Under the pieces are notes generated by a model, which did no database searches, was not told the DNA's origin, and saw only the letters and a program-made list of their open reading frames with translations. From a virus (Duplodnaviria > Heunggongvirae > Uroviricota > Caudoviricetes), in IMG/VR virus record IMGVR_UViG_3300016457_000036, positions 71,253 through 120,543 of that record: 49,291 bases of DNA; one strand, given 5' to 3'. The first letter of the stretch is position 1, and each line of letters begins with the position of its first letter. The position numbers and the translations under genes are program-made. Of the stretch, positions 1-22,434 are shown one piece after another.

Positions 1-3000
1 TATTCATAGGATCATCACCGTGTATCTTATTCATAATAGAATCAACAGGACTGAAATATCCTTTTAGAGGTGTATCTAGCCAATCAATGCCAAGTGCTTC
101 TCTAGTTGCTAAAAATAGACCTACACCTAGTGGATTTTTCTTAACGAATGTACCCATAGCAGACAGAGATCTTTCTAAGTATTTCGTAAACATAAGGAAG
201 CCGTTATCATTCGCCCACTTGATCCATTTATTATCGAGGTATGAATAGTTAACAAACATCTTATCTGTCTCACGAAGATCTACACCACCTTCTAGTAGCA
301 TCACACGGTTAGCAATATCGTTCAACTGTGTAAGCTTAACAAGCTTCTGATATGCCCATGACTTATTAGTAAGGAATAAGACATCTGTTACATTTTTAGT
401 GCCTTTAGGGAGCTTAGTAAATAGCTTATCTAACTGTGACGTAATAAGACCATCATCCTTATAAATATCAAAGTCAATATCCTCTAGGATAGAACTGTAC
501 TGCCCATCTTTAAATAGTGAATATGCTCTATTATCTTCTAACTCTCTTTTTAATGAGTCGATGCGATCTTGTGTCACATCTTCCCCCGCTTTTTGAGCTA
601 TTTCTAAACGAATAATCTCACGATTAGTCGCTTGGAAATCGTTTAATGCTTCCCATATACCTGTAAATTCTTTCATATATTTAAGTGGATTAGGCTGTCG
701 TAAACGGATCATAGTTACAATCATGTTCGATACTGTATTATTTTTAATCGTACTGAACATCTTAGTAACAATACTCTTTTTAGCTAGTCCTACAAGCTCT
801 GCCCACCCTTTACCAAGTATCTGTACAGTACGCTTAATACGAGGGCTGCTTTCAAAGATACCGAAATCAGTAACACTTGCATCTTTATATCCTGTAAAAT
901 CTACGAGTAAACTATTTGGAATAGCTATCGAAGCTTTACCTGTCATACGTTCTATTTCTTTACGCGCATAGTCAGGTATGATATTCCACTTATCAGCATA
1001 CTCGTACTCTTTACCTTTTAGACGCTCATTAGGATTAGTTGCACGTAATATCGTAAATTTATCCTCGTTACCGGCATAATTATTTTCAGCATACGCGATC
1101 ATATTATGTACAGAATTGATATTACTACGTATCGCTTCTTCTTTATGTGACAGGTTAGCTGATGTATTTGCAATAACGTGAGCAAGGTTATCATTAAGCC
1201 CTAAGTGTGCTTCTTGATCAGCATAACTAACCTTGATACGATAATCCTTTATCTCACCCGTTATACTTCGCTCAGGAGTCATAAAATTCTCTTCTGCGAC
1301 TATTGCATCGTACTTAGGCTTTTCTTTTGCCATACGTGTCATAACATCAACTATCTCTATCTGATCAAGACCTGCTTCAAAAAGTACGCGTCTAAATGAC
1401 ATACCCTCTGCACGGATCTGTACAGTATTGATAAGACCTTGAGTATATGCTGTTTCTAAATCTGTACCGGCCACTAGAACGTATTCTTCTCCGGTAGCTT
1501 CTTCAAGCGCTGTCAGTAAGCCTGATTTTTTATCCGCATTAATGACCTTCATACCACTTTTTTCTAACTGTACTAACTCTGACTTCTTAACGATATGCTG
1601 TACTTGAGCGGTATCTTTATGTTTAACATGAAAACCTTTTTCCTCTAAAATAGCTTGTGGTCCGACAAATACTTGATCACGCATAGTCTTACGGTCTGCA
1701 TAATACACATTCATACTATTTTGAATAACTCCTACATTTTTAGCGATGGCAGCTATAGTGTTCGTCCTATCTTCTAAACCTGTCTGAGTAAGAGCATATA
1801 AACTAGCTATTTTATCAATATCTGCTACAGCATCTTGTGTTTTGTAGTGCCGCTGAATTTCAGTAGCATTAATGAAACCATTTTTATCGGTATCTACTCC
1901 TGTAACAAGCTTCATGCCTAAACGCTTAGCCGCTAATACAACTTCTTTATCCATGCCTTTCGACAGCTTTTTAATCTCATTAAACGCTAAACTAGTATCC
2001 TCTAACATAGGTACTAAATCTTTAACATTTTTAGTAATAGAAGCATAGTCAATATTCAACAGAGCTTTTTTAAGTGACTGTACAATACTTTCATCGAGTT
2101 TATTTGTCTTAGGATCTTTTGCCATAAAAATACTAAGGCCTTCGTGATTATGCATATCACCTAATAACTTAACAACAGCCTCATGCTTTAATGTTTGAGT
2201 AGCTGAATCCACCTCATACTTAGACTGTCTGAACATGTCATAGAACCATGCTATCTCAGGATCGGCTGTATCACGTAATACTGCTGTAAAAATGTTATTT
2301 CTAATCAGCGTTTGCTTAATACCCATAGTAAGTTTTGAATCTGTAACTCTATCTACCCATGCTGAAAGAGAGTCTGTTTTTTCATTTACAAGAGAGACTT
2401 TACCACTATTTCTAACTTTCTTCTTTTTGCCTTCGGTCATTAGTTTCATAGCATTTACAGTCATCTCATCAGCTTTGTCATAGATCTTCTTAAACTTCCC
2501 ACTAGGCTCAGCAGGGAGTGAACTATTCTTTGAAGCTTGCGCAGATACTTGAAAGAGTTGCATTACAATATCATTCACAGCTTCTTTACCACTTTTATTG
2601 TCTGTCACAGCCGTTGTTACAATTTTATTGAATACTTCGATCATACGATTAACAAAATCTTTTAGTGAATAGCCTAAAGTCTTTTTAGTTCTTCCACGTG
2701 CATTTGTTGTTTTTTCGTTTTCAAATAATCCAAATGTATCATCCTTCTGCTTAACATTTTCAAGCATCTCTTGCATGTACATATTAGTAGATGCATACGC
2801 TAAGAACTCACTCTCAGGGTATGTAGGATTATGGAATACATACTCATAAAGCTTTTTAGCATATTCAACTTCATGACTTGTTGGAGTAGCTTTATCTGTT
2901 AAGAACATCTCATAAGGACGTTTACCGGCCTCTTTAGCTTCTTTACGAGCTTGTCTCTCTAACTTAGTAAGCTCTGCTTTCGTAAGTGGTCTACCCACCT

Positions 3001-5563
3001 TAGCTACTTCTGCTGTCTGCAATTCCGCATAGATAGTGTTAAGCTTAGCTTTCTCAATATATGCAGGAATTTGAGCCGCTGCTGTCTTACGTAATTTACG
3101 TATTTTAGTCTTCATCTTAGGATCAGCCGCAAGTGCTTTTTCGATCATAATGTGCTGTACTTCGTGTAAGAATAATTCTAATGGAGTAGAGAACGTCTGA
3201 TTACCTGTAAGATCGATACGAATATGTCTTGAGTTAAGCTCTGAATCTGCCTTAATAAAGGTATCTTCCCGCTTATTACTAGCATCTAAATAATCTTGCA
3301 TAGTCATCTGATCGGCTGTAATACCTAAATCTTTATACATTTTTATAATGTTTTTCGCCATTGTTTTAAGATGTTCACGATTAGTCTCATACGTTCCCGT
3401 TAAAGCGCCCTTCTCTTCGTGGTCTAACATCTCTTGGACAATATCAAGTAGTGAAGAGTCTAGTGAAAATGTAGCAGGATCTTCGTTGTACTTGATGTTC
3501 TCATCATAGTCACCTGTTTGAGCTTGCTGTGAACCACGTATAGAGTTATCGAACTTAGCTGTATACTTGCCATTGACTACATTTACAGTAGCTTCTGATA
3601 CTTCTCCATCTGTGACCTCTTTAACTGCATCAGGATTAGCTTTAGCATGTGCACCGGTCATAAATGGCTTAATACCATTGTCCTTATTCACATACTTAGT
3701 AATGTGGAAAGGTGTACCTGATGGTTGCTCTGTGAGTACTGTACCATCGGATAGTGTAACCTCTACTACATCGTATTCCATGTCGCTATCTTTGTATGTA
3801 CCGACCACTTTAACGCTAACTGTATCACCTTCTGTACCTGGTATCAATGGCCCATCGCTGAACTTACCTTCAGGCTTGAAGTTATAAGTGATATGTAGTC
3901 CATTATCGAGCTTGAACTCAGAGAACAATTTAATAGGGGCACCTTCTTGTAATGAACCACGTACATCAGCATTTTGAATAGCTGTTACAATATTTTTACG
4001 CTGTGTTTTATTTTTATCAGCCCATACTTCTTTACCTGATTTTTTACTATACAACACGTCATTCTCAGCATCATAGGCATACTCACCTTTGCCGTATACA
4101 ACACTTGGTAACGCATTAAGATTTACAGTAGTATCTACTTTAATAGCAGGTGAGTGTACAGGCGCAGGTCCGGCCATTTCTACAGCAGCATCAAGAGCTT
4201 CTCCGCCTTGCTCAGCAACAGGAGGGTTACTATACTGTCCATTTCCTACTACATAGTTAGTTGTATCAACAGTAGGCTCTGCAGTATCGTTTACAGTAGT
4301 TTCTTGAGGTTTCTCTACAACTGCTTCAACAATAGGAGCCTGTTCTTCATTACGATTTTTAATGAAATCACGAAGAACTTTTGCATGTGTCAGCTCTTTT
4401 TCCTCTTTGAAATAGATGATCTTCTTACCATCTAACTGACCTGCATTAATCGTTTCTAGTATCCACTCTCTACGAGCAGGTTCTACATCTTGATGTGCAG
4501 TACCTTCTAACCACTCTTTAAACATAACACTAACTTCTTCACCTGTACCCATAGCAGGTTGTGAAGCGCCTGTATTAAGCCCTGTGACACCAAACGGATT
4601 GCCATAGTGATAATCAGGGTTAAGTGTGTTATTAAACATTTCTGCGTCGAATACACGCATACCAAATACACCTGCACCAATATTATGAGCATTGGCTCTC
4701 TTCTGCTTAGCTTCTGCTGATTTACCCGGTATTACTAAGATGCCATCGCTATTACGCATTTCATCTGTGATCACATCTGTACTTCTTGCAATTTTACCGA
4801 ACTGAGCCTCGAACATATCACTAATCGCTTTTTTACCTGTATCAGTAATATTTCGAGAGCCTATACCCGCATAATTTTTAGTTAGGGTAGGTGATCCTTC
4901 TTTAATAGGCTTCCATGTGCTAGTCTTGTAGTTCCACTCATACCATTGATTAGTTTGACCATCGTCAAAAATGTAGATAGGTTTACCCGCATCTTTTCCC
5001 ATTTCAATAGCATATGCTGTTCCACCTGAGCCTGTATCTTCTGTTACTTGACTAGTATCACCAGGAGTATTAAAACGTCGAGCTGATTCACCTTTACGTG
5101 TAATAGGAGTAACTGCAAAAATTGCATCTGCATATTTTACTTGTGACCAATTACGAATGATAAGGCTATTTGTGACTGTACCTGTAGGAGTTGTGAGGCC
5201 TGAACGTCTTGCTGCTGCTGTAGCTTTAGACGCGCCTTCTCTGTAATCTGAACGAGTAATAGGTGTGTTTGCATTAGGAGGCTGTGACTCAAGATCTTGG
5301 TTAGTATCGTAATAGTGATTACTACGGAAACCAAATAAGGCTGCTATCTCTCCGAATACTGTATCGGCACCGATCGCTCCCCCACTCTGATTAACGAACT
5401 CTTTACCATCGCTACGATTATTCACCGCTGCTTGGTTTTGTTCTCTAACTATAGTAACATCTTTAAGCGCATCATCGAGCCATTGCTCATTATACACTTG
5501 ACCACTTTTTTCAATGTCCGAGAGAATACTCGCTCTTATCTTACCTAAGTCACATACAGCCAT
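1..5563 (-). CDS. vRNAP second subunit (3'-truncated by window edge, >=1854 aa): SLOG + DUF4326-like + 2H phosphoesterase + zincin + N4 vRNAP C-terminal domain
   Basis: Hand translation from ATG 5563 (AAGGA RBS; MAVCDLGKIRAS...) is open to base 2. Contains HEVQH...EFLAYASTN, IDKIASLYAL, FTGYKDASV, KLPKGTKNV and FVNYSYLDNKWIKWANDNGFLMFTKY, which resemble the C-terminal third of N4 gp50. Not in the ORF track because no stop lies inside the window. Confidence 0.9.
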   Translation of the reverse strand, partial: MAVCDLGKIRASILSDIEKSGQVYNEQWLDDALKDVTIVREQNQAAVNNRSDGKEFVNQSGGAIGADTVFGEIAALFGFRSNHYYDTNQDLESQPPNANTPITRSDYREGASKATAAARRSGLTTPTGTVTNSLIIRNWSQVKYADAIFAVTPITRKGESARRFNTPGDTSQVTEDTGSGGTAYAIEMGKDAGKPIYIFDDGQTNQWYEWNYKTSTWKPIKEGSPTLTKNYAGIGSRNITDTGKKAISDMFEAQFGKIARSTDVITDEMRNSDGILVIPGKSAEAKQKRANAHNIGAGVFGMRVFDAEMFNNTLNPDYHYGNPFGVTGLNTGASQPAMGTGEEVSVMFKEWLEGTAHQDVEPARREWILETINAGQLDGKKIIYFKEEKELTHAKVLRDFIKNRNEEQAPIVEAVVEKPQETTVNDTAEPTVDTTNYVVGNGQYSNPPVAEQGGEALDAAVEMAGPAPVHSPAIKVDTTVNLNALPSVVYGKGEYAYDAENDVLYSKKSGKEVWADKNKTQRKNIVTAIQNADVRGSLQEGAPIKLFSEFKLDNGLHITYNFKPEGKFSDGPLIPGTEGDTVSVKVVGTYKDSDMEYDVVEVTLSDGTVLTEQPSGTPFHITKYVNKDNGIKPFMTGAHAKANPDAVKEVTDGEVSEATVNVVNGKYTAKFDNSIRGSQQAQTGDYDENIKYNEDPATFSLDSSLLDIVQEMLDHEEKGALTGTYETNREHLKTMAKNIIKMYKDLGITADQMTMQDYLDASNKREDTFIKADSELNSRHIRIDLTGNQTFSTPLELFLHEVQHIMIEKALAADPKMKTKIRKLRKTAAAQIPAYIEKAKLNTIYAELQTAEVAKVGRPLTKAELTKLERQARKEAKEAGKRPYEMFLTDKATPTSHEVEYAKKLYEYVFHNPTYPESEFLAYASTNMYMQEMLENVKQKDDTFGLFENEKTTNARGRTKKTLGYSLKDFVNRMIEVFNKIVTTAVTDNKSGKEAVNDIVMQLFQVSAQASKNSSLPAEPSGKFKKIYDKADEMTVNAMKLMTEGKKKKVRNSGKVSLVNEKTDSLSAWVDRVTDSKLTMGIKQTLIRNNIFTAVLRDTADPEIAWFYDMFRQSKYEVDSATQTLKHEAVVKLLGDMHNHEGLSIFMAKDPKTNKLDESIVQSLKKALLNIDYASITKNVKDLVPMLEDTSLAFNEIKKLSKGMDKEVVLAAKRLGMKLVTGVDTDKNGFINATEIQRHYKTQDAVADIDKIASLYALTQTGLEDRTNTIAAIAKNVGVIQNSMNVYYADRKTMRDQVFVGPQAILEEKGFHVKHKDTAQVQHIVKKSELVQLEKSGMKVINADKKSGLLTALEEATGEEYVLVAGTDLETAYTQGLINTVQIRAEGMSFRRVLFEAGLDQIEIVDVMTRMAKEKPKYDAIVAEENFMTPERSITGEIKDYRIKVSYADQEAHLGLNDNLAHVIANTSANLSHKEEAIRSNINSVHNMIAYAENNYAGNEDKFTILRATNPNERLKGKEYEYADKWNIIPDYARKEIERMTGKASIAIPNSLLVDFTGYKDASVTDFGIFESSPRIKRTVQILGKGWAELVGLAKKSIVTKMFSTIKNNTVSNMIVTMIRLRQPNPLKYMKEFTGIWEALNDFQATNREIIRLEIAQKAGEDVTQDRIDSLKRELEDNRAYSLFKDGQYSSILEDIDFDIYKDDGLITSQLDKLFTKLPKGTKNVTDVLFLTNKSWAYQKLVKLTQLNDIANRVMLLEGGVDLRETDKMFVNYSYLDNKWIKWANDNGFLMFTKYLERSLSAMGTFVKKNPLGVGLFLATREALGIDWLDTPLKGYFSPVDSIMNKIHGDDPMN

Positions 5564-5572
5564 TACAGTCCT

Positions 5573-8500
5573 TTAACACGCATCATTCATGTAGTCTACT
5601 AATTGATCTTGGTAAGCAGTTACCTGTTCTTTAGAGAGATATTTATCTAAAGCTTTATTAATATGCACCACAGCATCATCTTCGGTTATTATATTGTACT
5701 CTATGTTAGCATCTGCTAAGTTCTTAGTGTTTTCAATAATCGTTGTAAGCACTTCTTTAATCTTGCTGTATACATACTTAGTATTCTTTTTAGTATCTTT
5801 TCCTACCCGGACACTAGGTACTGTATCGATCCCTTGTAAGTGGTTTACATCATACTCTTTATTCAAGTTTTCGCTACGCTGTTCATCCATTTCAGTAAGT
5901 ATGCTAAATACTTCATTTATGTCGAAATCTTTATTGATCCGTGATAGACCATCTGATAATTGCTGTGTAAGATTTTGCTCCGCTAAAAACTTTTTAAAGT
6001 CTTTTAATTCTCCATTAGCAATAAGCTCAGAAAGGCTATTCTCTGTTTTAGCTACAGCATTTCCCATAATATCATGAGTACGAGCTGTGTGCAGCACTCC
6101 TCCGTTATATTCACCGTGTGTTTTTACGATTTTATCCATATTAACACCCATGATGTATGCATCATAAATATTCTGAAAAGAGGCACTATCTGAGATACTC
6201 ATAAGGAACGCATCGATCTCGTGAATGTCAATAACACCATTAGCACCAATATTCATGCCTGGTACTTTGTTGTATGATGCCCCACTCTTACCTACACGAT
6301 TTTTAAATGGAATGGCACCGTCACGAAGAGCACCATCTACACCTACATAGTCTCCGGCTTCGTTGTCATACTTCATGTAGTCTTGATTAGCACCTTCATT
6401 AATACTCTGTGAAGTGTACCCATAACCTTGCTCACTTAGCTTTACAAGGATCTTGTTGAAGTCTTCTTTACTAATCTGTACAGTATCCGTACCGGCTTCT
6501 GCTTTGTACTTTTCTAATTCTTGTTTAAGCTTGTACTTAAAAACTGTAAAGTTTACTATCTCAACACTTTTTAGAGCCTCTCTAAATCTATTCAAGAAAG
6601 GGAAAGCCTTATTAAAAGCTTTTTCAATAATATCCCCATATGCATTAGATGTCTGCTTAGCGATACTCGCTTGCATCTCTTGAGATAGTACGAGATTATT
6701 TACAGTATGCATTATACGACCGTCTTCAGGCATCTCATCTTTAGTGCTATAGAAGTCAGTACCGCTCTTGTATGCTTTATACTCAATACCTTGTGCTAGT
6801 TGAGCATATAGATCCTCTAGTGATGGCGTAGTAGTGTTTGCAAACAAGTTTGTATACAGTCTATTGAACTCCTGCCCTTCAGTAGCTTCAGCATATTGTG
6901 AGTTATATGAACGAAGAATAGTAGTGAGCAAAATCTTTGCTTTTTCTCTTTCTACTTTCTGCTCTGCTGTCTCTCCTTGAGGCGCAGAACGCTCTTTCCC
7001 TTGTCCTCTAAAGTTAGGATAGGCTACCATGAATAAATCATGCATAGCCATACCTTTATACTGTCCTAAAGCATTACTGACTGTTTCTACACCGATAGTA
7101 ATACCGGCATTTTTCTTAATTGTGTTGATACTCGCACCATAGATGTAGTACATAACTAAGTACTTCATCAGATTACGCCAATTTTTATCTTTACCTTTAA
7201 TAACAAAAGCTTCTACTAGCTTCTCAATATTAGTTTTACCGTCATAACCATCTCCCGCTTTTTTAGCGTTTCTAATTGCAAGCTCTTCTGCAACGATTTC
7301 AGCAGGAGTACGATAAATATCAATTCCACCTTCATCTAAAAATTGTTGATGAGTTTTAAACTCACTATTTCCTTCACTATCCACAACATAGATACCACCT
7401 TTTTTAAGGTAGTCCATCGCTTCATTTGTACCAATTTGTAATAGTGTTAAGATCATACCTGATGTAACTGCATCCATCTCAATAACAAGACTGTGATCAA
7501 AAGCTTTACCTTCTGCACTCTCGAACTGTGCTAGAGCCGCTACGAGCTGATAAGCATGGAAACGCTCATTTGTCGGCAGGAAGCTGAGATCGATCTCTGT
7601 GCCTTCTTTATAAGCTTCTACGACAGGTTTAATAGGACTGTTCTCAGGATAAGTCACAGTACCATCATTCTCAAGCTTAAAGTATTTTTCTTCTAGCTCT
7701 TTAAATACACTTTCTGAAGTCTCTTTATCGATACCTAGACCTAGTGACTGAGAAGCTGCACCTTTAAACATAGTGATGTGATCAGCATCGTAGCCTTTAC
7801 CATCTTTAGCGACAGGCATTGTACTTTTCATATCTTCCATCTCAACAATAAAACGAGTGATCTTACTATTCTGTGGGTTCATCATCTGATTTTCTATCAT
7901 ATAACGACCTGACACAGTAACGTCCCACGCTAAGTAGAACGGAAGTGTGTCGCCATTCGGCTGATTTACTAACTGATACGTAGTGATCATGTTGTCAATA
8001 ATAAGCTTATTGGCTGCATTATTTTTTACGTCCGTTGCCTGCTTTAAATATGGCTTATTAAGTATCTGCTCTTCACTAACAAGGAGCATGTCATAAAACA
8101 CATCATTGATAGTGATATGATCCTTAGCCTCTGTATTCTTGTTGTTATACTCTACTCGCTCTTTTACTTCTGCAAAAAGTTTCTCGAACTCTGCTGTAAA
8201 TTTACGTGGTAGTTTTTGTTGGGCATTGATATAATCAACTTGGTTTTCTCCGGCAACTTCTATAGACTGTCCACGATAAGTCTTCTTACCATACTCTAAG
8301 TCAGCAGGAGGATCTAACTGTACTTGTGTTCTATCACCATCAATACCTAAATATTCATACGCAGAAGACACTTCAGTAATCAGTTGCACAGTCTTGTCGT
8401 TAAGGTTAGTATTCATTATTCTGAAATGTTTCCCATTTGCAGGCGCATCATCACGTACAGTTTGTACAATTTTACCATCGGCACTAGAATCAGAAATAGT

Positions 8501-11500
8501 TATTGTGTCTCCACTATTAAACGTAGTAGACTCTCTGCCTTCTTGGTGCGTACTATTTTTAACAGCTTCTATAACCATTAATCCTAGTGCTGTAGTAATA
8601 CTATCGGCTAATTTAGCATCCACATTACCTAGAATACTTAATCTCAAAGAACGAAGCACATTTTTACCGGCACTTTGTACGAAAGCTGACTCAGGTACTT
8701 TACCTTCAGTAAGCATATTAGAAAGCTCTGTATATGCAGCATCACTTGGATCTACTCCAAATACATCTGAGATATATCTTTCTCTCTCATCACCTTTTTT
8801 AACACTTACTTCTGCCATACTCCGCATAGTCTGTAGCATTTCTAATTTAATAGCATCTTGAATTTCAGTAGCTATGCCATCAGTAACACGCACACCACCC
8901 TTATTCATCAACTTACTAAGAAGTGCTATTGGATTAGGGAAATATTTCTGTGTCTTATTGCCATCCTTATCTGTCTCATACAGGTCAAATTCAGTCTCTT
9001 TACCATCTGCATCACGTTCTACATACTTAACAGTTACTACGCCTGTAGCCGCATTAGTTTCTACAATAGGGTATACGTTACCGATAACATCTGTATGGTC
9101 TGCAGTAACTCCCACAAGCATACGCTGATCTGTTTTAATCTCAGTATTTTGCATGATAGCATTACCTTTTTGTAAGGCTGCCATGAACGCTAATTTTTCT
9201 TCAGTTGTTCCATTTATAAAGATACGCTCTTTAATACCTTTAGGTAGTAGTGCAAGTATCTGATCTTGATTTACAAGATTACCATTTGCATCTGCTTCTG
9301 TCATCAAATCATTAATAGTCACATCGAGATCGAGAATACTTAATTTACTAGTGTCTTTATTCACTTTCAATAGGTCTGTTATATGGTTCTTTACCATCTT
9401 AACGAACGCAGCTATTTTAGAAGGATCTTTAAAGAGAGGCTTACCATCTGCTTTTTTACCTGCTTGAGCATTATCTTCGATAGCTTTGGCCATCAACTGA
9501 CTACCTGCAAGATCTTTATCCAATTCAGCCTCTAGTTGACGTTTAGTAGTCTTTAACTGCTGTGCACGTTCTAAAACAGCGAGTTCTGTAGTACGTACTA
9601 AAATACGCTTAATAACTTTTTCGATAATCGCATCTTGTTCCGCAATAGCCTTTAGTAATCTCTCATTCACTTTATCTATACGCTTCTGACGCTCTTCTCT
9701 ATTATAAGCATCTTGAGGCAGATCAATATTTGTATCGCGTATCTGCTGAAGTTCGTTAAGTTTATCTGCAGTAGTTTGAAGTACACGCTGATCATTAATC
9801 ATATTAGCAGTATGTTGTTTTATCTGCTTACTAATACCCTCAAAACTTGTTACTCTTTTACGTAATCCGATCAGCTCAGTAACTAGTTGTCTCCACTCTT
9901 TACTGTGCATGAACTTATTGACAAAAGGTTTTAAGCGATTTTCGCTTCCTCTTTGCTGATTATCCGTTCCATCTGTGTCTTGTTCTTGACCAACATCTTC
10001 TGTGCTCTCTGTAGTTTCTTTTGTGTCTGATCGAGTTTCTTCTGTACTTGTGACATCTTCTTGCTCCTGTGCTTTCTGCTCTTCATCATAAAGACGTTCT
10101 AACTCAAGTATATCTTCTACTGAGTACGACTCTTCAACTGCTTTGTCTGTCTTAAATACCTCATCTGTACCGGTAGTATCATCTTCACTGACTTCATTGT
10201 TAGCACGACTTGCTGCCTGTGCCGCCTCTGCCTGTGGATTAGGTTTACGACGATACTTATACTCTGTAGAAGGACGATTATCTGTCATCTCAGCGTACAT
10301 CTCATCGATACGAGTAATTACTTTTTGACTTGCTTTAGTTCCGGCTTTAAGTAGAGCATTTTCTAAAGTTACGCCGTCTGACCATTTACGAATAAACTCA
10401 GCAGGACCTTTCTTAAATGCGCCAATACGTGCTACTAAAGCTTGTACTTTTTCTTTGGTGGTAGTTACTTGTACTGTAGGAGTATCTGAAGCTGTAGGCT
10501 CTACATTAGCAGTAGTTTCAATAGTTCCTACATCTTCTGTAAGAGTAGTTTCTACCGGGATCTCAGTAGTTTCTACTGTCTCTTCATTTACAGGCTCGGT
10601 TTCTTCTACTATCTCTTCCTCAATATCTTCAGCTACTTCGGGCTCAGCTTCAGGAATAGGATGATTAGCATAGCCTTTAGCATAGCCTGCTTCATAGGCA
10701 TCTACAAGCTTAGTAGAGTTTGCCCCATCCATAACTTTCAGATCTTCTAACATTGCATCAGAGGTGGCTTCTGCTTCCGCTAAATCTGTATTTAATTGAT
10801 CCATATCAGGATTAGAAGTATCACGCATCTCAGCTATTATGCCTGATACACTATTACCATGATCAAAACCTCTAGTATTCGCTTCGTCTTCTGTCATGGT
10901 CGCAGGTGTTTCAGTATCTACGACAGGTGCTTCAGTAGACTCTTCTGTAATCAACTCATTATCATCAAAAGGATTAGCAGGTCTTTCAACTCCGCTTTTA
11001 CCCATATCAACACCATTCATAAAGTTTACATCACTACCTATCGCTGTGCTAGAGAAACGAGACAACATACTATCAATCTCTTGTTGTACGCCATCGAGTT
11101 CTATAAGAGCTTCTTGCCGTGCTTCAGGACTAGTATTAGGATCATTTATCTCATCACTCAAAGCTTTGTGTTCTTTACCTAAAGAGTATCCTATATCGTT
11201 AATTTCTTCAGGGATCATATTTAAGTCGCCTGACGTATTTTCATTTGCTCTGTGGGCTTTTTGCTTATCTTTAATCTCTTGAGTATTTTCATCGAGATTA
11301 AGTAGCATAGCTTGTAACTCTGTAGTAGTATCTTGTGCCGCTTTAGAACCACGCTTACTAATAGGCGCTAACATTTCAGTCTTAATAATATCTGCAATAC
11401 GCTCATTATTTTCAATGATAGTACTCATGTGTCTATCTAGCTGATAGTAACTCAATGGTACGGATTTGCCTTGTGCTTCATCCCATACTTCAGTCTTAGC

Positions 11501-14137
11501 TGTTTTTCCAATATTACGTGTCTGAAGAAACGAGTCTAGCTCTGTAAGAGGTTGTTTAGTGCTTTTACCTGTAAGCGCGGCATCAACAATACCTTGTGTA
11601 TGTTCCTTCATAGATAAGCGTCTTCTACCTAAAAACGAGAAACCTGTTTCAAAAATCTCTTTTTCTACTTGGTGAGAATTTTTATTCTTACCTACATCGT
11701 CAAGTCTTACTTCTAACTCTTGAGCTCTTTGTTGGAAATAAGCAAGATCTTCAGGAGTGTACACATCAGTATTATTACCTACAGAGCCCATACGTTGTAT
11801 TACAGCTAGTGCTTTTGCTTTAGCCGAAGTGGATAGACCTTGAATGGCATTACTATCGTCTTCATTTCTAGCCATTTGAGCAAGCTCAGGTCCTAGTGTA
11901 TCTGACAATCTACGTTCATGTAGAGTAATGAGCATATCAAGAACTTTTTGACGATTAATACCTTCTAATCCATCTAAAGCTCTTTCATATGTCTCTTCTA
12001 CTACATCCATAGTTGGAGCTGCATCTTCACCATTTCTAATACGCTCTATAGCTCTGTCATTCAACTTACTAAGTACACCGGCAGTAATCACTCCCATTGC
12101 TTCTTCATCATTAGGGTCAATTTTATTGATACGTGCAATTTTTTGTACGTTCATCTGAAGGTAGTCACGAACAGTATTCTGACCTTGTTCGTATACACCT
12201 GACTCAAGGAAACGCTTAGGATCTGCAAGCTTATTAGTAGTCTCTTCTATAATAGCATTTGTAGCAGCCCCTTGTGCCTCAACAGTATCGAATGTGTCGA
12301 AGATGCCCTCTTCTTCATCAAGAGTCATATCGGCTATTTCTATCACAGCAGAAGGACTGTACTTAGTACGATCACCCTTAACTCTTGTATCTTCTGAATT
12401 AAAAGTATCTTTTCCTAGTCCATACACTTGACCAGGTGCGCCCATGTGAACACCACCTGCGGCACCGGCTAACGTAGCACCTAGCACTTCATCAATGTTC
12501 TCTTGATTTGTAAGAATAGCGGCTAATCCGCCCGGATGTTTTTCAGTACCTAACTGCTCTGAAAGGATCTGTCCCCAATTCTGAGTAAATTCCTGAGCGG
12601 CTTCTGTCGCACCGGCAGCACTAAGACCTGCAGCTGTTTCACCTATCTTAGCTAAGAAGCGTTTCTTACCTATAAGTGTAGATGAACTGAACGCATCTTG
12701 AAGCATACGTTTACCACCATCTAAGCCGGTGATTTTTCCGAACGCAATACGATCAAGACCTAACTCTAAAACCTTCTCAGCAGTAACAGCCATGATCTCT
12801 ACCATTGTAGGTTCTTTGCCGTTATTGTTGATCTTACGTTCTTCTAATGAGTTGTTAGCTTGCTCACCTACGACTGTAAGGAAACCTGCATTACTTAGAA
12901 CCTTATGACGTAAGTTATCAGCAATACCCATACCACTAGCAATCTTTTTATCAATTTTCTCAGCACGTACTATGTTACCCGCTGCTCTTGCTTCAGTTGC
13001 ACGTGAAGCTAGTTTTCCTATTTTAGTAAACTTACCAAAACCTACAAGCATCTCAGCCATCATACCTAGTGACTCAGCAGTGATCTCAGGGTTCTTTAAT
13101 ACCTCTGTGATAGCAGATACATAGTTACCTTGTTTCCAATAGCCTGTAGCCTCTCCTAGCGTCTTGGTGGCATTAACACGATTATACCCCACCCACTTAT
13201 CGATGTTCTCTTGCTTTTTAGCATTATCTAGCCAATCGTTATTACCACCTGGTGTTAGAACATCAAGAACGAAGTCAGCAGAACTTACTCCTGCTTTAGC
13301 AAAACCTGACTGAGCTGCATCAATAACATTGTACTGACCACCATTATAGTTAGCATCGTTTGCATCACTGAGCATTTGAGAAAATGCTTGATTATTTGCT
13401 ATCTGCTCAGGTGTTGCATTTTTATTAAAGAATTGAGTATTGTATATCTCTGTGTAGCCCTTATCTAACTGTGCAGTATCTCTGATACTTTCACCGGCAG
13501 TATTAAAACCTGAGTCGTAAGTACGATCAGCTAAGTTGGCCTTATTACCATGCCACTTATTTTCCCAATCCTCCGCACCTGCGAAACCTTTTTCAGAAAG
13601 GATCTCATAGCCATCTCTAATATATTGATCTTTGTAGCGAGCTGCAGCACTTACAGGAGAGATACCTGTCTTGTAAGTATAAAGAGGATTACCTGCTTCA
13701 TCATAGCCATCATTGAGTCTGAGTTGGTACACTTTAAAACGTGCGTTAGGATCATCTTCAGCAGCATTGTATTGATTAATAAGTTCCTGTCGATGAACAA
13801 GACTTTGTTCCATAGTAGTATCAGAGTCTTCAAAGATCTTATTAGTCATACCGACTTCTTGACCTTCTACATTAGCTGTAAAATCTTTACCGCCCCATAA
13901 GTTATTTACAGTATTCCATGTAGATTTAGCTGCAAGTGTAAGATCTGAGTCACTACCGGCTTGATCGTGCTTAGCAGATAGACGTGCTTTTTTACGTTCT
14001 GCTATTTCATCAAGTGTAAGGTTTTCTTGTAGCATTGGTGCTGTCTTAGCTTCTGTAGCTGCTATAAAAGCATCAATATTATTTTCATTGCTAAAATCTG
14101 TAGGAGTAAATGAGTATGGATCGTATTTTTCAGCCAT
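5573..14137 (-). CDS. Virion-encapsidated RNA polymerase (N4 gp50-like), N-terminal and polymerase domains, 2854 aa
   Basis: T7/N4-type motifs: SGRYMIENQMMNPQNSKITR, motif A IEMDAVTSG (~7460-7483), motif B RNLMKYLVMYYIYG (Rx3Kx7YG, ~7136-7177), motif C QNIYDAY (~6155-6172); size and position match N4 vRNAP. Confidence 0.92.
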   Translation of the reverse strand: MAEKYDPYSFTPTDFSNENNIDAFIAATEAKTAPMLQENLTLDEIAERKKARLSAKHDQAGSDSDLTLAAKSTWNTVNNLWGGKDFTANVEGQEVGMTNKIFEDSDTTMEQSLVHRQELINQYNAAEDDPNARFKVYQLRLNDGYDEAGNPLYTYKTGISPVSAAARYKDQYIRDGYEILSEKGFAGAEDWENKWHGNKANLADRTYDSGFNTAGESIRDTAQLDKGYTEIYNTQFFNKNATPEQIANNQAFSQMLSDANDANYNGGQYNVIDAAQSGFAKAGVSSADFVLDVLTPGGNNDWLDNAKKQENIDKWVGYNRVNATKTLGEATGYWKQGNYVSAITEVLKNPEITAESLGMMAEMLVGFGKFTKIGKLASRATEARAAGNIVRAEKIDKKIASGMGIADNLRHKVLSNAGFLTVVGEQANNSLEERKINNNGKEPTMVEIMAVTAEKVLELGLDRIAFGKITGLDGGKRMLQDAFSSSTLIGKKRFLAKIGETAAGLSAAGATEAAQEFTQNWGQILSEQLGTEKHPGGLAAILTNQENIDEVLGATLAGAAGGVHMGAPGQVYGLGKDTFNSEDTRVKGDRTKYSPSAVIEIADMTLDEEEGIFDTFDTVEAQGAATNAIIEETTNKLADPKRFLESGVYEQGQNTVRDYLQMNVQKIARINKIDPNDEEAMGVITAGVLSKLNDRAIERIRNGEDAAPTMDVVEETYERALDGLEGINRQKVLDMLITLHERRLSDTLGPELAQMARNEDDSNAIQGLSTSAKAKALAVIQRMGSVGNNTDVYTPEDLAYFQQRAQELEVRLDDVGKNKNSHQVEKEIFETGFSFLGRRRLSMKEHTQGIVDAALTGKSTKQPLTELDSFLQTRNIGKTAKTEVWDEAQGKSVPLSYYQLDRHMSTIIENNERIADIIKTEMLAPISKRGSKAAQDTTTELQAMLLNLDENTQEIKDKQKAHRANENTSGDLNMIPEEINDIGYSLGKEHKALSDEINDPNTSPEARQEALIELDGVQQEIDSMLSRFSSTAIGSDVNFMNGVDMGKSGVERPANPFDDNELITEESTEAPVVDTETPATMTEDEANTRGFDHGNSVSGIIAEMRDTSNPDMDQLNTDLAEAEATSDAMLEDLKVMDGANSTKLVDAYEAGYAKGYANHPIPEAEPEVAEDIEEEIVEETEPVNEETVETTEIPVETTLTEDVGTIETTANVEPTASDTPTVQVTTTKEKVQALVARIGAFKKGPAEFIRKWSDGVTLENALLKAGTKASQKVITRIDEMYAEMTDNRPSTEYKYRRKPNPQAEAAQAASRANNEVSEDDTTGTDEVFKTDKAVEESYSVEDILELERLYDEEQKAQEQEDVTSTEETRSDTKETTESTEDVGQEQDTDGTDNQQRGSENRLKPFVNKFMHSKEWRQLVTELIGLRKRVTSFEGISKQIKQHTANMINDQRVLQTTADKLNELQQIRDTNIDLPQDAYNREERQKRIDKVNERLLKAIAEQDAIIEKVIKRILVRTTELAVLERAQQLKTTKRQLEAELDKDLAGSQLMAKAIEDNAQAGKKADGKPLFKDPSKIAAFVKMVKNHITDLLKVNKDTSKLSILDLDVTINDLMTEADANGNLVNQDQILALLPKGIKERIFINGTTEEKLAFMAALQKGNAIMQNTEIKTDQRMLVGVTADHTDVIGNVYPIVETNAATGVVTVKYVERDADGKETEFDLYETDKDGNKTQKYFPNPIALLSKLMNKGGVRVTDGIATEIQDAIKLEMLQTMRSMAEVSVKKGDERERYISDVFGVDPSDAAYTELSNMLTEGKVPESAFVQSAGKNVLRSLRLSILGNVDAKLADSITTALGLMVIEAVKNSTHQEGRESTTFNSGDTITISDSSADGKIVQTVRDDAPANGKHFRIMNTNLNDKTVQLITEVSSAYEYLGIDGDRTQVQLDPPADLEYGKKTYRGQSIEVAGENQVDYINAQQKLPRKFTAEFEKLFAEVKERVEYNNKNTEAKDHITINDVFYDMLLVSEEQILNKPYLKQATDVKNNAANKLIIDNMITTYQLVNQPNGDTLPFYLAWDVTVSGRYMIENQMMNPQNSKITRFIVEMEDMKSTMPVAKDGKGYDADHITMFKGAASQSLGLGIDKETSESVFKELEEKYFKLENDGTVTYPENSPIKPVVEAYKEGTEIDLSFLPTNERFHAYQLVAALAQFESAEGKAFDHSLVIEMDAVTSGMILTLLQIGTNEAMDYLKKGGIYVVDSEGNSEFKTHQQFLDEGGIDIYRTPAEIVAEELAIRNAKKAGDGYDGKTNIEKLVEAFVIKGKDKNWRNLMKYLVMYYIYGASINTIKKNAGITIGVETVSNALGQYKGMAMHDLFMVAYPNFRGQGKERSAPQGETAEQKVEREKAKILLTTILRSYNSQYAEATEGQEFNRLYTNLFANTTTPSLEDLYAQLAQGIEYKAYKSGTDFYSTKDEMPEDGRIMHTVNNLVLSQEMQASIAKQTSNAYGDIIEKAFNKAFPFLNRFREALKSVEIVNFTVFKYKLKQELEKYKAEAGTDTVQISKEDFNKILVKLSEQGYGYTSQSINEGANQDYMKYDNEAGDYVGVDGALRDGAIPFKNRVGKSGASYNKVPGMNIGANGVIDIHEIDAFLMSISDSASFQNIYDAYIMGVNMDKIVKTHGEYNGGVLHTARTHDIMGNAVAKTENSLSELIANGELKDFKKFLAEQNLTQQLSDGLSRINKDFDINEVFSILTEMDEQRSENLNKEYDVNHLQGIDTVPSVRVGKDTKKNTKYVYSKIKEVLTTIIENTKNLADANIEYNIITEDDAVVHINKALDKYLSKEQVTAYQDQLVDYMNDAC

Positions 14138-14190: not shown

Positions 14191-16035
14191 TTAGTCCCAT
14201 TGTCCTGCATTTTTTCTAGCCTGTATTTCAGCTTTAATTTGTTTTATTTTAAGACTGTTCTCTTCTATATTTTCTTTTTTCTTCAAAGAACTTTTAAGAA
14301 CTGCAAGTTCTTTTTCTAATTGTCCTTTTTGCATTACTTTAACTTGATCTGCTGTCGCTTTTAAACGAGCATTAGTTGTTGCTTCTGCCTTAGCCTGAAG
14401 CACATTATTTGCTATCACATTAGCTGCTTGTGCTGCTTTAACTTGTTCTGTAGTAGATGTAGGATCTGACATTACATTAGAAACATAAGTGTTGTTACGT
14501 GCTATCAACTCTTGATTTGTCATAGGACGTTCTTCACCTGCTACTAAGTAGTTATCGGTATATTCAGGATTATTCTCTACTGTACTATAAAGAGCATCTT
14601 GTTCATCTGTCTGCTGCTTAGTGAAAGCTTTTTCTTTATTTCTATAGTCTTTAATATGGGCTTTTACTGCAGTATCGGTAGTTGCTTGTTTAGTAGCTTC
14701 TGCTTTAACTCTATCCATCTCTTTCTGAGCTTTTTCTAGTTTAACTTTATCTGAGTCTCCCGGAGAAAAAAGGTAATCAAGCACTTTTCCAACTAAACTA
14801 AGTTGTTTAGTGCGTTCTTCTATAGGAGTGTTACGTCTTTTAAGACCTTCATCATATCCCGTAACAGCAGAGAGAGCTTTAATAAAACCGCTTGATGCTG
14901 CTTTATCATCGGCATTATTTATTTTGTACTGCAAAGCTAACTCTTCATCAGTTTTAGGTGTGTCATAACCGGCTGCTGTTTTCTCTCTTTTCTGCTTAGC
15001 TTGTAAAGAAGTAAACTTTCCTACTATCGCTGTTTGCTGTGCAGGATTAAGTTCACGAAAACGTTTTTCCTGTGTATCCGCACCTTTAGTAGTACTCTTT
15101 TGCTGAGTAAGACTAAACTGAGCGTCAGCAAGTTCGGAAGCTGCTTTCTCTTTAGTCTGTATACGTTTCTCTTGAATATTCCATCTACGAGTAAGCTCTT
15201 TCTGCTGTTCGATAGTTTTATTCAGCATTGTCTGACGATATGTAGCAGTACGCGCTTCTCTTGCAACATCGTTTTTATCTTTTAGTTCATCACGTGTACG
15301 TTTATACTCACGTGCTTCTTTAGTCTCTTGCTTATCTTCTATACGATTAGCAGCAGTTAGTTTTATACCTGCTTTATAGCGATCATCGAGTAATTGATTA
15401 CGAGTATCTTCACGTGCATATTGAGAGATCTTCTCTTGTGTTTTAGCATCTCCACCGGAAATCGCTTTAGCACGTAAAGCAGTTGCTTCTGCGTCACGCT
15501 GTGCAATAAGAGGAGTAGCCTCTGCTGCAGCTTGACCTGCTCGTTTTTGTATCCATTGAGATTGCTCTAAAACTACACGTTCATCTTCAGTAGGCTTTAC
15601 ATTAAACTCTCTATTAAGTTTAGTAGTTTCCGCTATGAAGTTATCACGTTCTGCTCCGGGCTTCATACCTGTAGCCGACTCTGTAGCACTTTTTAAAGCA
15701 GTAGCATCTAAACGCTTTTCAATATTAAAAGCATCATCTATGATTTCAGAAGCTTTTGGTGTTAGACCTACTGTACCGGTCTTATCAATAGTGGATGTAC
15801 CATCTTTATACTCAGTAGAAATATCTTCTTTACCATAATCAGGATCTAATGAAGCACGTAAAGCTTCGGCATTAGCCTTATCTTGATCTTTTTTCTCTAC
15901 GTTTTGAATACCTGATTGTACTATAGAAGCAAGATCTCTTCCACCTCTAGCAATAATTTCAGCTACACCACTTTTAATAGGCCGAGGAGCCGGTGCTAGA
16001 TTTATTTGTTGGTATGGATTTCCGTACTTAGCCAT
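14191..16035 (-). CDS. Internal virion/ejection protein (N4 gp51 position), 614 aa
   Basis: Directly upstream of vRNAP; Ala/Lys/Gln-rich coiled-coil; no Cys. Assignment mainly by synteny. Confidence 0.65.
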   Translation of the reverse strand: MAKYGNPYQQINLAPAPRPIKSGVAEIIARGGRDLASIVQSGIQNVEKKDQDKANAEALRASLDPDYGKEDISTEYKDGTSTIDKTGTVGLTPKASEIIDDAFNIEKRLDATALKSATESATGMKPGAERDNFIAETTKLNREFNVKPTEDERVVLEQSQWIQKRAGQAAAEATPLIAQRDAEATALRAKAISGGDAKTQEKISQYAREDTRNQLLDDRYKAGIKLTAANRIEDKQETKEAREYKRTRDELKDKNDVAREARTATYRQTMLNKTIEQQKELTRRWNIQEKRIQTKEKAASELADAQFSLTQQKSTTKGADTQEKRFRELNPAQQTAIVGKFTSLQAKQKREKTAAGYDTPKTDEELALQYKINNADDKAASSGFIKALSAVTGYDEGLKRRNTPIEERTKQLSLVGKVLDYLFSPGDSDKVKLEKAQKEMDRVKAEATKQATTDTAVKAHIKDYRNKEKAFTKQQTDEQDALYSTVENNPEYTDNYLVAGEERPMTNQELIARNNTYVSNVMSDPTSTTEQVKAAQAANVIANNVLQAKAEATTNARLKATADQVKVMQKGQLEKELAVLKSSLKKKENIEENSLKIKQIKAEIQARKNAGQWD

Positions 16036-16048
16036 GACTTATCCTTTA

Positions 16049-16333
16049 TTACCCGAAGGCTTGTCCGTTTTGCCCTGTTGAGGCCCAACTTTTTTGATCT
16101 GCTACTTGTCGATTATCTACAGCAATATTTGTAGTGCCTGTATTTGTAGTGCCTGTATTTTTAGCGTTTAATCCTGCAAGAATAGCCTGTGCAGAAGCAC
16201 CTAAACCTTTAAATGCTTTTGTTGTTCTATTGAATGAAGTAGCATATGTGTTATCTTTTTTAGTTGTTGCAGCAGAACGTGCAAAGTCAAAATTATAAGG
16301 CGATACTATTTGTGGCTCATTCTGAGAAGTCAT
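16049..16333 (-). CDS. Small Cys-free hypothetical protein, possible ejection protein, 94 aa
   Basis: TAATG stop/start overlap with the upstream gene; contains a 15-nt tandem duplication (16126-16155) encoding NTGTT twice. Confidence 0.6.
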   Translation of the reverse strand: MTSQNEPQIVSPYNFDFARSAATTKKDNTYATSFNRTTKAFKGLGASAQAILAGLNAKNTGTTNTGTTNIAVDNRQVADQKSWASTGQNGQAFG

Positions 16334-17103
16334 TACTGTTCCTGTGTAGCAGTATTGTTTTGCTTAGCTGCACGTGCACGTTGAGATGCTAGTAATGCAG
16401 CTTTTTTACGTGCATCTGAGGTTGCTGTCATTTCAGCATTGTCAGCTGAAGCACTAGGAGTATTAATTGGACCACCTAAGCCTCCGCCTGATGTTAGCGT
16501 AGTTTCTGTAAGTCCTGTACGAGAGCCTGCGTCTCTTCCTGTAGACTCTTTCATAAGATAGTCAGTAAAATTAGAACCTACTGCATCTCTAGCAATTCCG
16601 ATAGTATTTACACTACCTGGTAGATCGTTTTCAGCGGCATATACAGATGGAGCACGTGAAGTACCTCCTCCACTAAAGTCATTTGCAGCGAGGACTGCCG
16701 GAGTTTCAATTCCTGTCATAGGATTAGTATACGCAGGACTAGCACTACCTCCACCTATCTGATAATCAGACGCAGTGAGAGTACTGTAATCACCTGTACC
16801 TTGTGTTTCTGTACGAGCACGTTCTCTAGCTGCGTCAAGTGCATCATAGTACTCTTGACTATCACGATCTAAAGTAGGATCTATCTGTCCTCTATACCGA
16901 GCTGTTTTACCACCTGTGATAGCGGCTAATCCGGCAAGACGGTTTTGATTCATGTTAAATTGAGCTATTTTAAGACCTGTGTCTTTATTCCACATTTCTT
17001 TTTGCTGTTTTCTAGCTGCTTCAGCTTCTTTTTGTGCCGTATACGCAGCATATGCTGTCGAAATACCGCTAATAGCTCCACCTACTCCTGCTCCAATACC
17101 CAT
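16333..17103 (-). CDS. Ejection/pilot protein (N4 gp52-like), 256 aa
   Basis: Gly/Ala-rich amphipathic N-terminus MGIGAGVGGAISGISTAYAAY followed by a helical QKEAEAARKQQKEMW segment, typical of podovirus ejection proteins; no Cys; lies between gp53-like and gp51-like genes. Confidence 0.6.
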   Translation of the reverse strand: MGIGAGVGGAISGISTAYAAYTAQKEAEAARKQQKEMWNKDTGLKIAQFNMNQNRLAGLAAITGGKTARYRGQIDPTLDRDSQEYYDALDAARERARTETQGTGDYSTLTASDYQIGGGSASPAYTNPMTGIETPAVLAANDFSGGGTSRAPSVYAAENDLPGSVNTIGIARDAVGSNFTDYLMKESTGRDAGSRTGLTETTLTSGGGLGGPINTPSASADNAEMTATSDARKKAALLASQRARAAKQNNTATQEQ

Positions 17104-19564: not shown

Positions 19565-20048
19565 TTTTACATTCCTTAAAACCTAGCAGTTCACTAGGGT
19601 TGCCTCTTAATAAATATCTTTTTGCGATGTACGCAGAACTAATTGTGATCACTCCTGTACTTTCAAACTTTAATTTTTGTCCAGGAGACATTAGACTTTT
19701 AAAGCTACTATGTTCGTTTCCATGTGGCACGAAATTTATTTTTGTATGCCTGTAGATAACGAATGTTAGAAAAAGTAGCTTTTCAACTGCGCTGAGATTA
19801 AGTAGATCCCACGTAGTAGCTATCTTACTATTTTCAAAACTAACACTTCCCTGAGTCCTACCATTAATCTTTATATGGTAAAAAATAGTACTATTCCGAA
19901 CACTATCAGCGTAGGCTTTATCTGCTTTTATACCTAGATTTTTTTCTAGTTTTTGTATGAGTTCTTCTATTATAGCAGTAGAAGGTTCATATGACTCTAT
20001 GATGTACTTCTTACTGCCTGCTTTATTTGTGTAGCACACAGCTTCCAT
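19557..20048 (-). CDS. Hypothetical protein coupled to the ketosynthase gene, possible acyltransferase, 163 aa
   Basis: Overlaps both the KS gene (26 nt) and the gp53-like gene (8 nt); GGAGG RBS; alternating helix/strand pattern and FVPH motif. The CDS is well supported; the function is inference. Confidence 0.6.
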   Translation of the reverse strand: MEAVCYTNKAGSKKYIIESYEPSTAIIEELIQKLEKNLGIKADKAYADSVRNSTIFYHIKINGRTQGSVSFENSKIATTWDLLNLSAVEKLLFLTFVIYRHTKINFVPHGNEHSSFKSLMSPGQKLKFESTGVITISSAYIAKRYLLRGNPSELLGFKECKNG

Positions 20049-20886: not shown

Positions 20887-21085
20887 CCTCTATGTTTTGC
20901 CATGTCATATTTTCTATATTGGCTTCACCGAGACTGCCATTAGGAAGGAAAGGATGTTCTGCATCTATATTTAGCAGTACCATTGTAATACCGAAACTAT
21001 CGAGTCCAACTTCGGTAACTTTTTCATTAAGAGATATTAACTCGCCATTTTCTTCTTCGACTAGCGATTGGAAGTATTCTAGCAT
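20864..21085 (-). CDS. Acyl carrier protein, 73 aa
   Basis: Small acidic protein with the phosphopantetheine motif VGLDSF (S30); AAGGA RBS; overlaps the KS start. Confidence 0.85.
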   Translation of the reverse strand: MLEYFQSLVEEENGELISLNEKVTEVGLDSFGITMVLLNIDAEHPFLPNGSLGEANIENMTWQNIEDAINENK

Positions 21086-21112
21086 TGTAGATCCTTGATA
21101 AGATATACTTGT

Positions 21113-21120
21113 ATTATACC
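21113..21120 (-). promoter_or_regulatory. Candidate -10 box (GGTATAAT) heading the ACP-KS-ORF163-gp53-ejection operon
   Basis: TATAAT in the 45-nt gap between the gp54-like gene and the ACP gene. Confidence 0.5.
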
Positions 21121-21130
21121 TTATTTTCCG

Positions 21131-21718: not shown

Positions 21719-21739
21719 GTCTACTCCCTAAATAAATAT

Positions 21740-21763
21740 AAAAGAAGACTCCGAAGAGTCTTC
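21740..21763 (-). terminator. Rho-independent terminator, C(UUCG)G tetraloop
   Basis: Minus strand GAAGACTC-TTCG-GAGTCTTC followed by TTTTATATTT, just after the gp55-like stop. Confidence 0.85.
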
Positions 21764-21770
21764 AATATAT

Positions 21771-22394: not shown

Positions 22395-22417
22395 TGTGTT
22401 TTCCTTATTATATGATA

Positions 22418-22434
22418 GAGGCTATTATAGCCTC
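22418..22434 (-). promoter_or_regulatory. Inverted repeat GAGGCTA-TAA-TAGCCTC containing a TATAAT box
   Basis: Perfect 7-bp stem with 3-nt loop; TATAAT (22424-22429) spans stem and loop; 30 nt upstream of the gp55-like ATG. Confidence 0.6.

Follow-up and report, generated by a model that had tools for sequence, protein, structure and literature searches.

The giant virion RNA polymerase (vRNAP) encoded in the stretch of phage DNA studied here is broken into two adjacent open reading frames (ORFs), and the only cysteine of each chain is found at the end that faces the break. The stretch, called the window in what follows, comprises 49,291 nucleotides (nt) from a marine N4-like phage of the Caudoviricetes (IMG/VR record IMGVR_UViG_3300016457_000036, positions 71,253 to 120,543), and the source genome is a single virus record of 120.5 kb that is 95% complete by CheckV. 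The upstream piece, ORF1, has 2854 amino acids (aa), and the downstream piece, ORF2, has 1868. From the positions of the cysteines, the two pieces are probably tied end to end. The explanation we favor, and to which we give a fair though far from overwhelming probability, is that a docking clasp is locked by a head-to-tail disulfide, a bond that we infer, and that the two chains would thereby form a single linear ejection thread.

A recount by script finds one cysteine in ORF1, its last residue (..NDAC, then TAA), and one in ORF2, residue 4 (MAVCD). Both had been reported in a preliminary description of the window, which also held that further cysteines in the part of ORF2 it had not seen would speak against its interpretation. 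The 14 residues of that tail, read in the whole genome, contain none, and the count of one holds over the full length of ORF2. The ejection proteins of 614, 256, and 94 aa, described earlier as free of cysteine, indeed have none, and the totals are two cysteines in the 4722 aa of the polymerase and two in the 5686 aa of the whole ejection block. The genome-wide cysteine frequency is about 0.57% (uncurated ORFs of at least 150 aa, giant ORFs included). Given one cysteine per protein, the chance of such a placement in the window alone ranges from 7.5e-7 (the last residue together with residue 4 or earlier) to 1.8e-5 (looser limits), which confirms that the observation is far from chance. Suppression of cysteine is a known trait of N4-type ejection proteins (PMC11445570; PMC3821669, citing Kazmierczak 2002). 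N4 gp50 has no cysteine, as the preliminary description had stated, and the suppression extends to the whole ejection operon of the Schitoviridae (PMC11445570); we counted none in DEV gp71 (3398 aa), gp72, and gp73.

The two ORFs can be recognized as parts of an N4-type vRNAP, with identities of 20-30% to known members. Residues 856-1852 of ORF2 match positions 2363-3382 (of 3406) of PHROG 2206, “virion RNA polymerase,” with an E value of 5e-62, which is the C-terminal (encapsidation) domain of such enzymes, and tblastn with ORF2 finds 275 phage records, nearly all of them annotated N4-like vRNAPs. The last 1275 aa of ORF1 match, again by tblastn, the annotated virion RNA polymerases of Vibrio, Salmonella, and Pseudomonas N4-like phages (E down to 4e-9). 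All four of the T7-like motifs, whose definitions are established knowledge for the T7-like and N4 RNA polymerases, occur in order within residues 2074-2661 of ORF1. Since motif C occupies residues 2657-2661, the break, about 190 aa beyond it, separates the polymerase core from the remainder. No family match was returned by Pfam for ORF1 or ORF2, nothing meaningful by PDB sequence searches with either, and no match by megablast of the junction region against phage records.

The gene order matches DEV gp73-gp72-gp71, and the 256-aa protein has a weak match to T7_gp14, under the Pfam cut-off. Like N4 gp50 and DEV gp71, the window polymerase is a giant protein with an N-terminal region, a T7-like RNA polymerase core, and a C-terminal domain, is encoded after small cysteine-free ejection proteins, and suppresses cysteine throughout, with no internal cysteine at all. 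N4 gp50 and DEV gp71 are packaged in the virion and injected, and the position of the window polymerase gene after those of the cysteine-free ejection-like proteins suggests the same fate for its product. The known enzymes are single chains of about 3400-3500 aa with no cysteine, whereas the window has chains of 2854 and 1868 aa with one cysteine per break-facing end, as well as extra accessory domains. Instead of a single polypeptide, there is a stop codon, a Shine-Dalgarno element, and an ATG between the two ORFs. This is the type of split known from the Alteromonas phages discussed below, in which adjacent genes, each with its own start, encode the N- and C-parts of gp50.

Judged by its relatives, the break is genuine, because it is kept at identities of 33-77% with differing spacers. 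Protein searches found homologues of ORF2 at 72%, 39%, and 46% identity, and the proteins P0002, P0003, and P0004 each have a single cysteine at residue 3-4. Locus L001 has one junction, and its upstream piece ends in ..NDEC. In loci L003 and L005, which have three polymerase pieces each, the only cysteines present flank the two junctions: the outer ends have none, so that the first piece carries one near its C-end, the last piece one near its N-end, and the middle piece one near each end. The preliminary description had proposed looking for the terminal pair in other split enzymes, and the pair was found to be kept. The downstream pieces also keep the N-terminal motif M-x-(x)-C-[DN]-[IL]-x-x-[IVL]. 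ORF1 of the window corresponds to the first two pieces (A and B) of L003 and L005 fused, and, as a control, it has no cysteine at the place where those two are split. Local alignments seeking clasp remnants in the fused A-B region of the window were no better than shuffles (z 0-1.5), so this boundary may have changed by fusion or by fission. Each of the six junctions in close relatives has a spacer of 3-10 nt, an AGGA or AGGG element, and an ATG, and the AGGA ahead of the ORF2 start suggests that translation of the two pieces is coupled but separate.

As far as can be read from alignments, the cysteine pair travels with the break and is missing where the chain is continuous. For example, in one relative (P0012 of locus L086, 3564 aa), the alignment with ORF1 extends to residue 2802, a cysteine-free linker of about 20 residues comes next, and the protein then aligns with ORF2 from residue 56; it is therefore a fusion across the break of the window. 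About 52 residues at the end of ORF1 and about 55 at the beginning of ORF2 have no counterpart in it, so both of these segments, which we call clasp segments, are split-specific. P0012 has a break of its own about 700 aa downstream, where ..KKEC and a stop are followed by MDC.. and the next ORF aligns with residues 740-1862 of ORF2, and the window has no cysteine at the corresponding position. In locus L089, the split lies after the polymerase, as in the window (..KENC / MVCKF), and the accessory domains are absent. Comparison of L086 and L089 therefore indicates that the pair moves with the break.

An accessory cassette with SLOG and other domains, about 700 aa long, also differs in position among these loci. 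It lies downstream of the break in the window (region compared, 1-14137), lies upstream of it in L086 (5075-19548), and is absent in L089 (7001-19707). From this arrangement, cargo domains seem to be gained, lost, or relocated at the break.

The same rule is seen across wider relatives. A scan of IMG/VR with the SLOG-bearing N-terminus as an alignment query returned 77 loci (L006-L082), and a scan with ORF2 as a lone protein query returned no match. Where the SLOG domain sits in a giant ORF adjoining other giant ORFs, the junctions all obey the cysteine rule, at varying distances from the domain. In 19 representative loci, each of the 27 junctions has a cysteine 0-11 residues from the upstream end and another at residue 3-8 of the downstream piece. 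These loci hold 54 terminal and 15 internal cysteines in 99,448 aa, and the joint chance of the arrangement, given the cysteine counts, is about 1e-115. Two adjacent boundaries in them that are not chain breaks have no such cysteines, and neither do the ends of unsplit giants such as L018 (5718 aa, no cysteine), L063, and DEV gp71. Stop and start codons overlap at many of the junctions, an arrangement compatible with coupled translation in equimolar amounts.

An exhaustive HMMER search with the last 600 aa of ORF1 gave 74 representatives of 50%-identity clusters. A cysteine no more than 4 residues from the C-end is present in 71 of them (71 of the 72 that are full size), and 22 of the 71, the middle pieces, also have one at residue 2-6. 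Internal cysteines number only 7 in 142,957 aa. The sole full-size exception, P0028, comes from a 3.8-kb contig, ends 19 nt from the contig edge, and has a tail that is atypical and rich in GC; we take it for a probable truncation or chimera, not for a counter-example.

Two cultured systems obey the rule as well. The Alteromonas phages vB_AmaP_AD45-P1 to P4 (AltAD45) are N4 relatives of 100-104 kb whose vRNAP is split into the adjacent ORF127 and ORF126 (Garcia-Heredia et al. 2013; PMC3821669). The stop between the pieces was confirmed by polymerase chain reaction (PCR) and resequencing, and virion gels showed two separate polypeptides of 270 and 175 kDa; the authors read the cysteines as speaking against injection of the protein, without remarking on their positions (PMC3821669). 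In AD45-P2, whose record was located by tblastn, the first piece has one cysteine two residues from its end (..HCKQ, then the stop), and the second piece has one at residue 4 (MTIC..). AltAD45 thus resembles the window in having a split vRNAP in adjacent genes with lone cysteines that face the junction, although the identity is low (about 22% by tblastn over the C-terminal domain).

The second system is Bacteroides phage crAss001 (locus L085; MH675552, 16120-34724). Its gp47 (2341 aa) has one cysteine, at residue 2339, and ends in ..RCNS; gp50 (2412 aa) has cysteines at residues 5, 1334, and 2404 (the last 8 residues from the end, the middle one an internal extra); and gp49 (1349 aa) has one, at residue 5. 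Read by the rule, this suggests a chain order of gp47-gp50-gp49. The gp47 gene is on the strand opposite gp50 and gp49, and therefore the rule is a property of the proteins and not of translation across a junction. As in the window, these are giant cargo proteins packaged in the capsid (“RNA polymerase subunits”) with the same end-cysteine grammar. They differ in the strand of gp47, in the extra cysteine of gp50, in phage order, and in belonging to another polymerase fold family, the crAss-type RNA polymerase having a two-barrel fold. The crAss001 virion has intersubunit disulfides elsewhere in the particle, and the cargo proteins have been argued to need partial unfolding for passage through the tail, with cysteine unmentioned (Bayfield et al. 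2023; PMC10172136).

With these relatives at hand, the possibility of chance, assembly error, or a pseudogene can be set aside for practical purposes. In the window, a single in-frame TAA lies between the ORFs, as would be left by one stop mutation in a one-piece gene with two incidental cysteines. However, conservation already contradicts this: the break and both cysteines are kept down to 33% identity and across 71 clusters, the joint chance is the one given above, and the stop in AD45 was confirmed experimentally (PMC3821669).

An origin at the level of translation is hardly more credible. In the window, TGT-TAA is followed by another TGT 18 nt later and the ORFs are in frame, and at 4 of the 6 junctions of close relatives a TGT stands directly before the stop, so a ribosome might hop from TGT to TGT in the style of T4 gene 60, or read through the TAA, and make one fused chain. 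However, the two L005 junctions read TGT-AAA-TAA and TGC-CAA-GGA-TAG, the 10-nt spacer of L001 puts its ORFs out of frame, and a further in-frame stop is present at one junction of L003. Also, 1-4 residues follow the cysteine in 28 of the 71 cluster representatives, every junction has its own Shine-Dalgarno element and ATG, and gp47 and gp50 of crAss001 are on opposite strands. Separate polypeptides are seen in AD45 virions (PMC3821669), and the folding of the junction RNA does not exceed that of shuffles (z +1.28). Hopping and readthrough were rejected on these grounds, and with them programmed bypass of the T4 gene 60 type, which the matched TGT codons of the window had made a candidate: the arrangement is unconserved, is impossible in crAss001, and comes with no RNA structure. 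A scan for promoters and terminators at the junction gave no more than shuffles do.

A split intein was also rejected, since a Pfam scan gave no Hint-domain signal and cysteines at the outer tips are the opposite topology. The likeness to split inteins is an analogy only: they, too, consist of separately made halves with short docking segments at the break and an essential cysteine, but in them the N-intein begins with a cysteine, another directly follows the C-intein, and the segments are cut out, whereas the cysteines of the window are at the extreme tips of the chains.

The terminal cysteines might also be modified in some other way, such as S-acylation by the acyl carrier protein/ketosynthase/acyltransferase cassette of the phage (19557-21085), by which the chain ends would become membrane-anchored during entry. 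Acyl groups are usually accepted by thiols. Still, we regard this as very improbable. No ketosynthase-like protein was found in six-frame searches of the complete AD45-P2 and crAss001 genomes, both of which obey the rule, although an empty answer of this kind is weak evidence, and lipidation gives no reason for cysteines on the junction-facing ends only.

A predicted model supports binding of the two clasp segments to each other. Complex prediction with the last 200 aa of ORF1 (6-row alignment) and the first 270 aa of ORF2 (4-row alignment) gave a docking score of 0.69, and the best of three controls scored 0.00. Of 80 solved complexes, 58 reach that score, as do 2 of 110 mismatched pairs; this calibration is rough only, own alignments having been used. 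At least 65% of the contacts are shared between prediction runs, and the predicted local distance difference test (pLDDT) value of the partner is 86. The confident interface joins residues 2813-2854 of ORF1 with residues 3-44 and 105-112 of ORF2, the latter in the DprA/SLOG-like domain, and both cysteines are listed in it. Contacts of residue 2842 with 12-13 and of residue 2846 with 9 are in an antiparallel register, which by extrapolation would point residue 2854 at residues 2-4 of ORF2. To our knowledge, there is no solved complex of the clasp region.

Between the two types of junction, A/B and B/C, the clasp helices at the N-termini have the pattern M-x-C-[DN]-[IL]-x-x-[IV]-x-x-x-[LI] in common, and hhalign gives their similarity a probability of 46% (E 2e-4) over 20 columns. 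This hints that the clasp module may have been copied from one break to another.

The mechanism that we propose would work as follows. The giant injected vRNAP would be made as two separately translated chains, each with a split-specific helical segment of about 50 aa tipped by its sole cysteine. The segments are predicted to dock as an antiparallel helical bundle, which would place Cys2854 of ORF1 beside Cys4 of ORF2. One interchain disulfide could then form by oxidation, either once the virion is released or as the proteins cross the periplasm. With the link made tip to tip, the unfolded pair would topologically be one linear thread with stubs of 0-3 residues. This thread would be packaged via the last piece, by its C-terminal domain, and drawn in order through the tail, as the one-piece N4 enzyme would be. 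All other cysteines would have been purged, as in all N4-type ejection proteins, so that no wrong links could form, and the bond could reopen in the reducing cytoplasm.

The position of the cysteines is the best argument that the link is covalent and not docking alone. If the linked chains have to stay a linear thread when they are unfolded in the tail channel, this would explain why the cysteines lie in the last 0-4 and the first 3-8 residues. Such placement at the tips is needed neither for a folded interface nor for a metal site and therefore favors a covalent link. One could consider, instead of a disulfide, that the two cysteines ligate a shared metal ion (e.g., zinc) or stabilize a docking clasp that is non-covalent. 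In the window lineage, an aspartate stands beside each cysteine (..NDAC / MAVCD, ..KDC / MTCD, ..NDCK / MACD) and could complete a four-ligand site, such a clasp could form in the reducing cytoplasm before packaging, and docking is predicted without any bond. Nonetheless, we consider this unlikely. The aspartate is not kept in other lineages (..KCK / MSCT, ..TNC / MACKY, ..RCNS / MSKRC), two thiols alone are a weak site, and neither metal nor docking accounts for cysteines within 0-4 residues of the chain ends, for which the need for a linear thread gives a reason. A metal site would also be lost on the partial unfolding thought necessary for tail passage (PMC10172136).

Another alternative is that the terminal cysteine bonds with a second copy of the same piece, or with another internal virion protein, and not with the neighboring piece. 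Several vRNAP copies may be packaged together, and near-terminal cysteines are weakly enriched among the other virion-module ORFs of the window (7 observed against 2.9 expected, P of about 0.03). We give this a small probability, since the strict grammar (C-end, both ends, N-end, and never the outer ends) is what a head-to-tail link predicts, and the predicted interface pairs two heterologous ends.

The head-to-tail disulfide clasp is thus favored by the positional rule, its conservation, the movement of the cysteines with the break, their absence from fused forms and outer ends, and the predicted docking. Several points weigh against it. The disulfide itself is something we infer. The prediction gives no distance between the cysteines, and their proximity is extrapolated from the register of neighboring contacts; the ORF1 fragment has low pLDDT overall (49-59), and the alignments are shallow (6 and 4 rows). 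The cytoplasm in which virions assemble is reducing, and no thioredoxin or glutaredoxin was found in the 95%-complete genome. Hosts such as Bacteroides are anaerobic, so oxidation would depend on the environment. In the AD45 gels, the chains ran separately; as those gels may have been reducing, the result neither supports nor refutes a bond (PMC3821669). The preliminary description had interpreted the two cysteines as possibly rejoining the subunits by a disulfide or other covalent link, for co-packaging or co-injection, releasable in the cytoplasm; this interpretation is supported, as the three computational tests able to refute it all came out in its favor.

Whether the arrangement is a portable device is a broader question, on which we are evenly divided. 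Phages that inject giant proteins may cut them at breaks bearing docking helices with a lone cysteine, and a tip-to-tip disulfide would make of the pieces a linear, redox-releasable thread that is packaged via the last piece and pulled through the tail. Such a device would recur at different breaks and in two unrelated polymerase lineages (N4-like and crAss-like) and would let accessory cargo be swapped at new ends.

Features of the split vRNAP and its surroundings, with positions in the window.
Feature	Position	Strand	Remarks
ORF1	5573..14137	-	2854 aa; N-terminal injection region and T7-like RNA polymerase domain; sole cysteine is the last residue
ORF2	1..5563	-	1868 aa in full; continues 44 nt past the window start, to genome position C1:71209; accessory domains and vRNAP C-terminal domain
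Codon of Cys2854 (TGT), final codon of ORF1	5576..5578	-	TAA stop next, at 5573-5575
Spacer AGGACTGTA, 9 nt	5564..5572	-	Shine-Dalgarno-like AGGA 5 nt ahead of the ORF2 ATG
Codon of Cys4 (TGT) of ORF2	5552..5554	-	MAVCD
C-terminal clasp segment of ORF1 (residues ~2803-2854)	5576..5731	-	split-specific; predicted interface 2813-2854
N-terminal clasp segment of ORF2 (residues 1-55)	5399..5563	-	split-specific; predicted interface 3-44
Catalytic motifs in ORF1	6155..7918	-	T/DxxGR 2074-2078, A 2221-2227, B 2321-2334, C 2657-2661; by pattern search
DprA/SLOG-like domain (ORF2 residues 56-255)	4799..5398	-	right after the clasp helices; tblastn match to the “DprA-like” protein of Caulobacter phage Cr30
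Three cysteine-free proteins (256, 94, and 614 aa) upstream of ORF1	14191..17103	-	in the position of the DEV gp73/gp72 ejection proteins

Some further observations concern the junctions of the wider relatives. In locus L025 (9894-17888), there is a mini-piece of 473 aa with cysteines at residue 4 and at the second-to-last residue, and a 241-aa ORF (MNQGIYKITN; GIY-YIG-like homing endonuclease) is inserted between it and the next piece (MACKY..). Gaps of 450-500 nt are present at junctions of L026 and L047. Insertion of an endonuclease may be one route to the splitting of such genes.

Other genes of the window and its relatives also deserve mention. The DprA/SLOG-like domain is widespread in IMG/VR phages, both as part of giant ejected proteins and on its own, in a protein of about 205 aa that begins with MIDIF... 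The last piece in L003 and L005 carries a NADAR domain (PF08719), which the window lacks. Among other virion-module ORFs of the window (19557-29653), one of 163 aa has Cys5 and Cys160 and one of 88 aa ends in a cysteine, and virion-module ORFs of 108, 195, 287, and 473 aa have a cysteine 1-5 residues from the C-end. Two further giant ORFs in the structural module (30687-37523 and 40303-45846; 2278 and 1847 aa) have 3 and 8 cysteines, respectively, none of them terminal. In L086 (21034-23769), there is a ribonucleotide reductase large subunit with an intein and a LAGLIDADG endonuclease, with a PF26760 “Lockin” protein nearby.

Full-text literature searches found no paper that describes a rule of terminal cysteines. 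Avoidance of cysteine in injected phage proteins is known as a purely negative rule, and the present finding is its positive counterpart: the only cysteines tolerated sit exactly at the places where covalent head-to-tail joining would make the pieces one thread again. Because AltAD45 and crAss001 are cultured, the link can be tested directly. If it is real, it would correct the published inference that the cysteines of AltAD45 mean a non-injected protein, and it would give annotators a rule for recognizing true chain breaks and the order of pieces, even across strands. It would also predict a redox switch upon arrival in the cytoplasm and would bear on the co-packaging of multi-piece virion polymerases at fixed stoichiometry and on their ejection in order, also in the abundant crassviruses of the gut.

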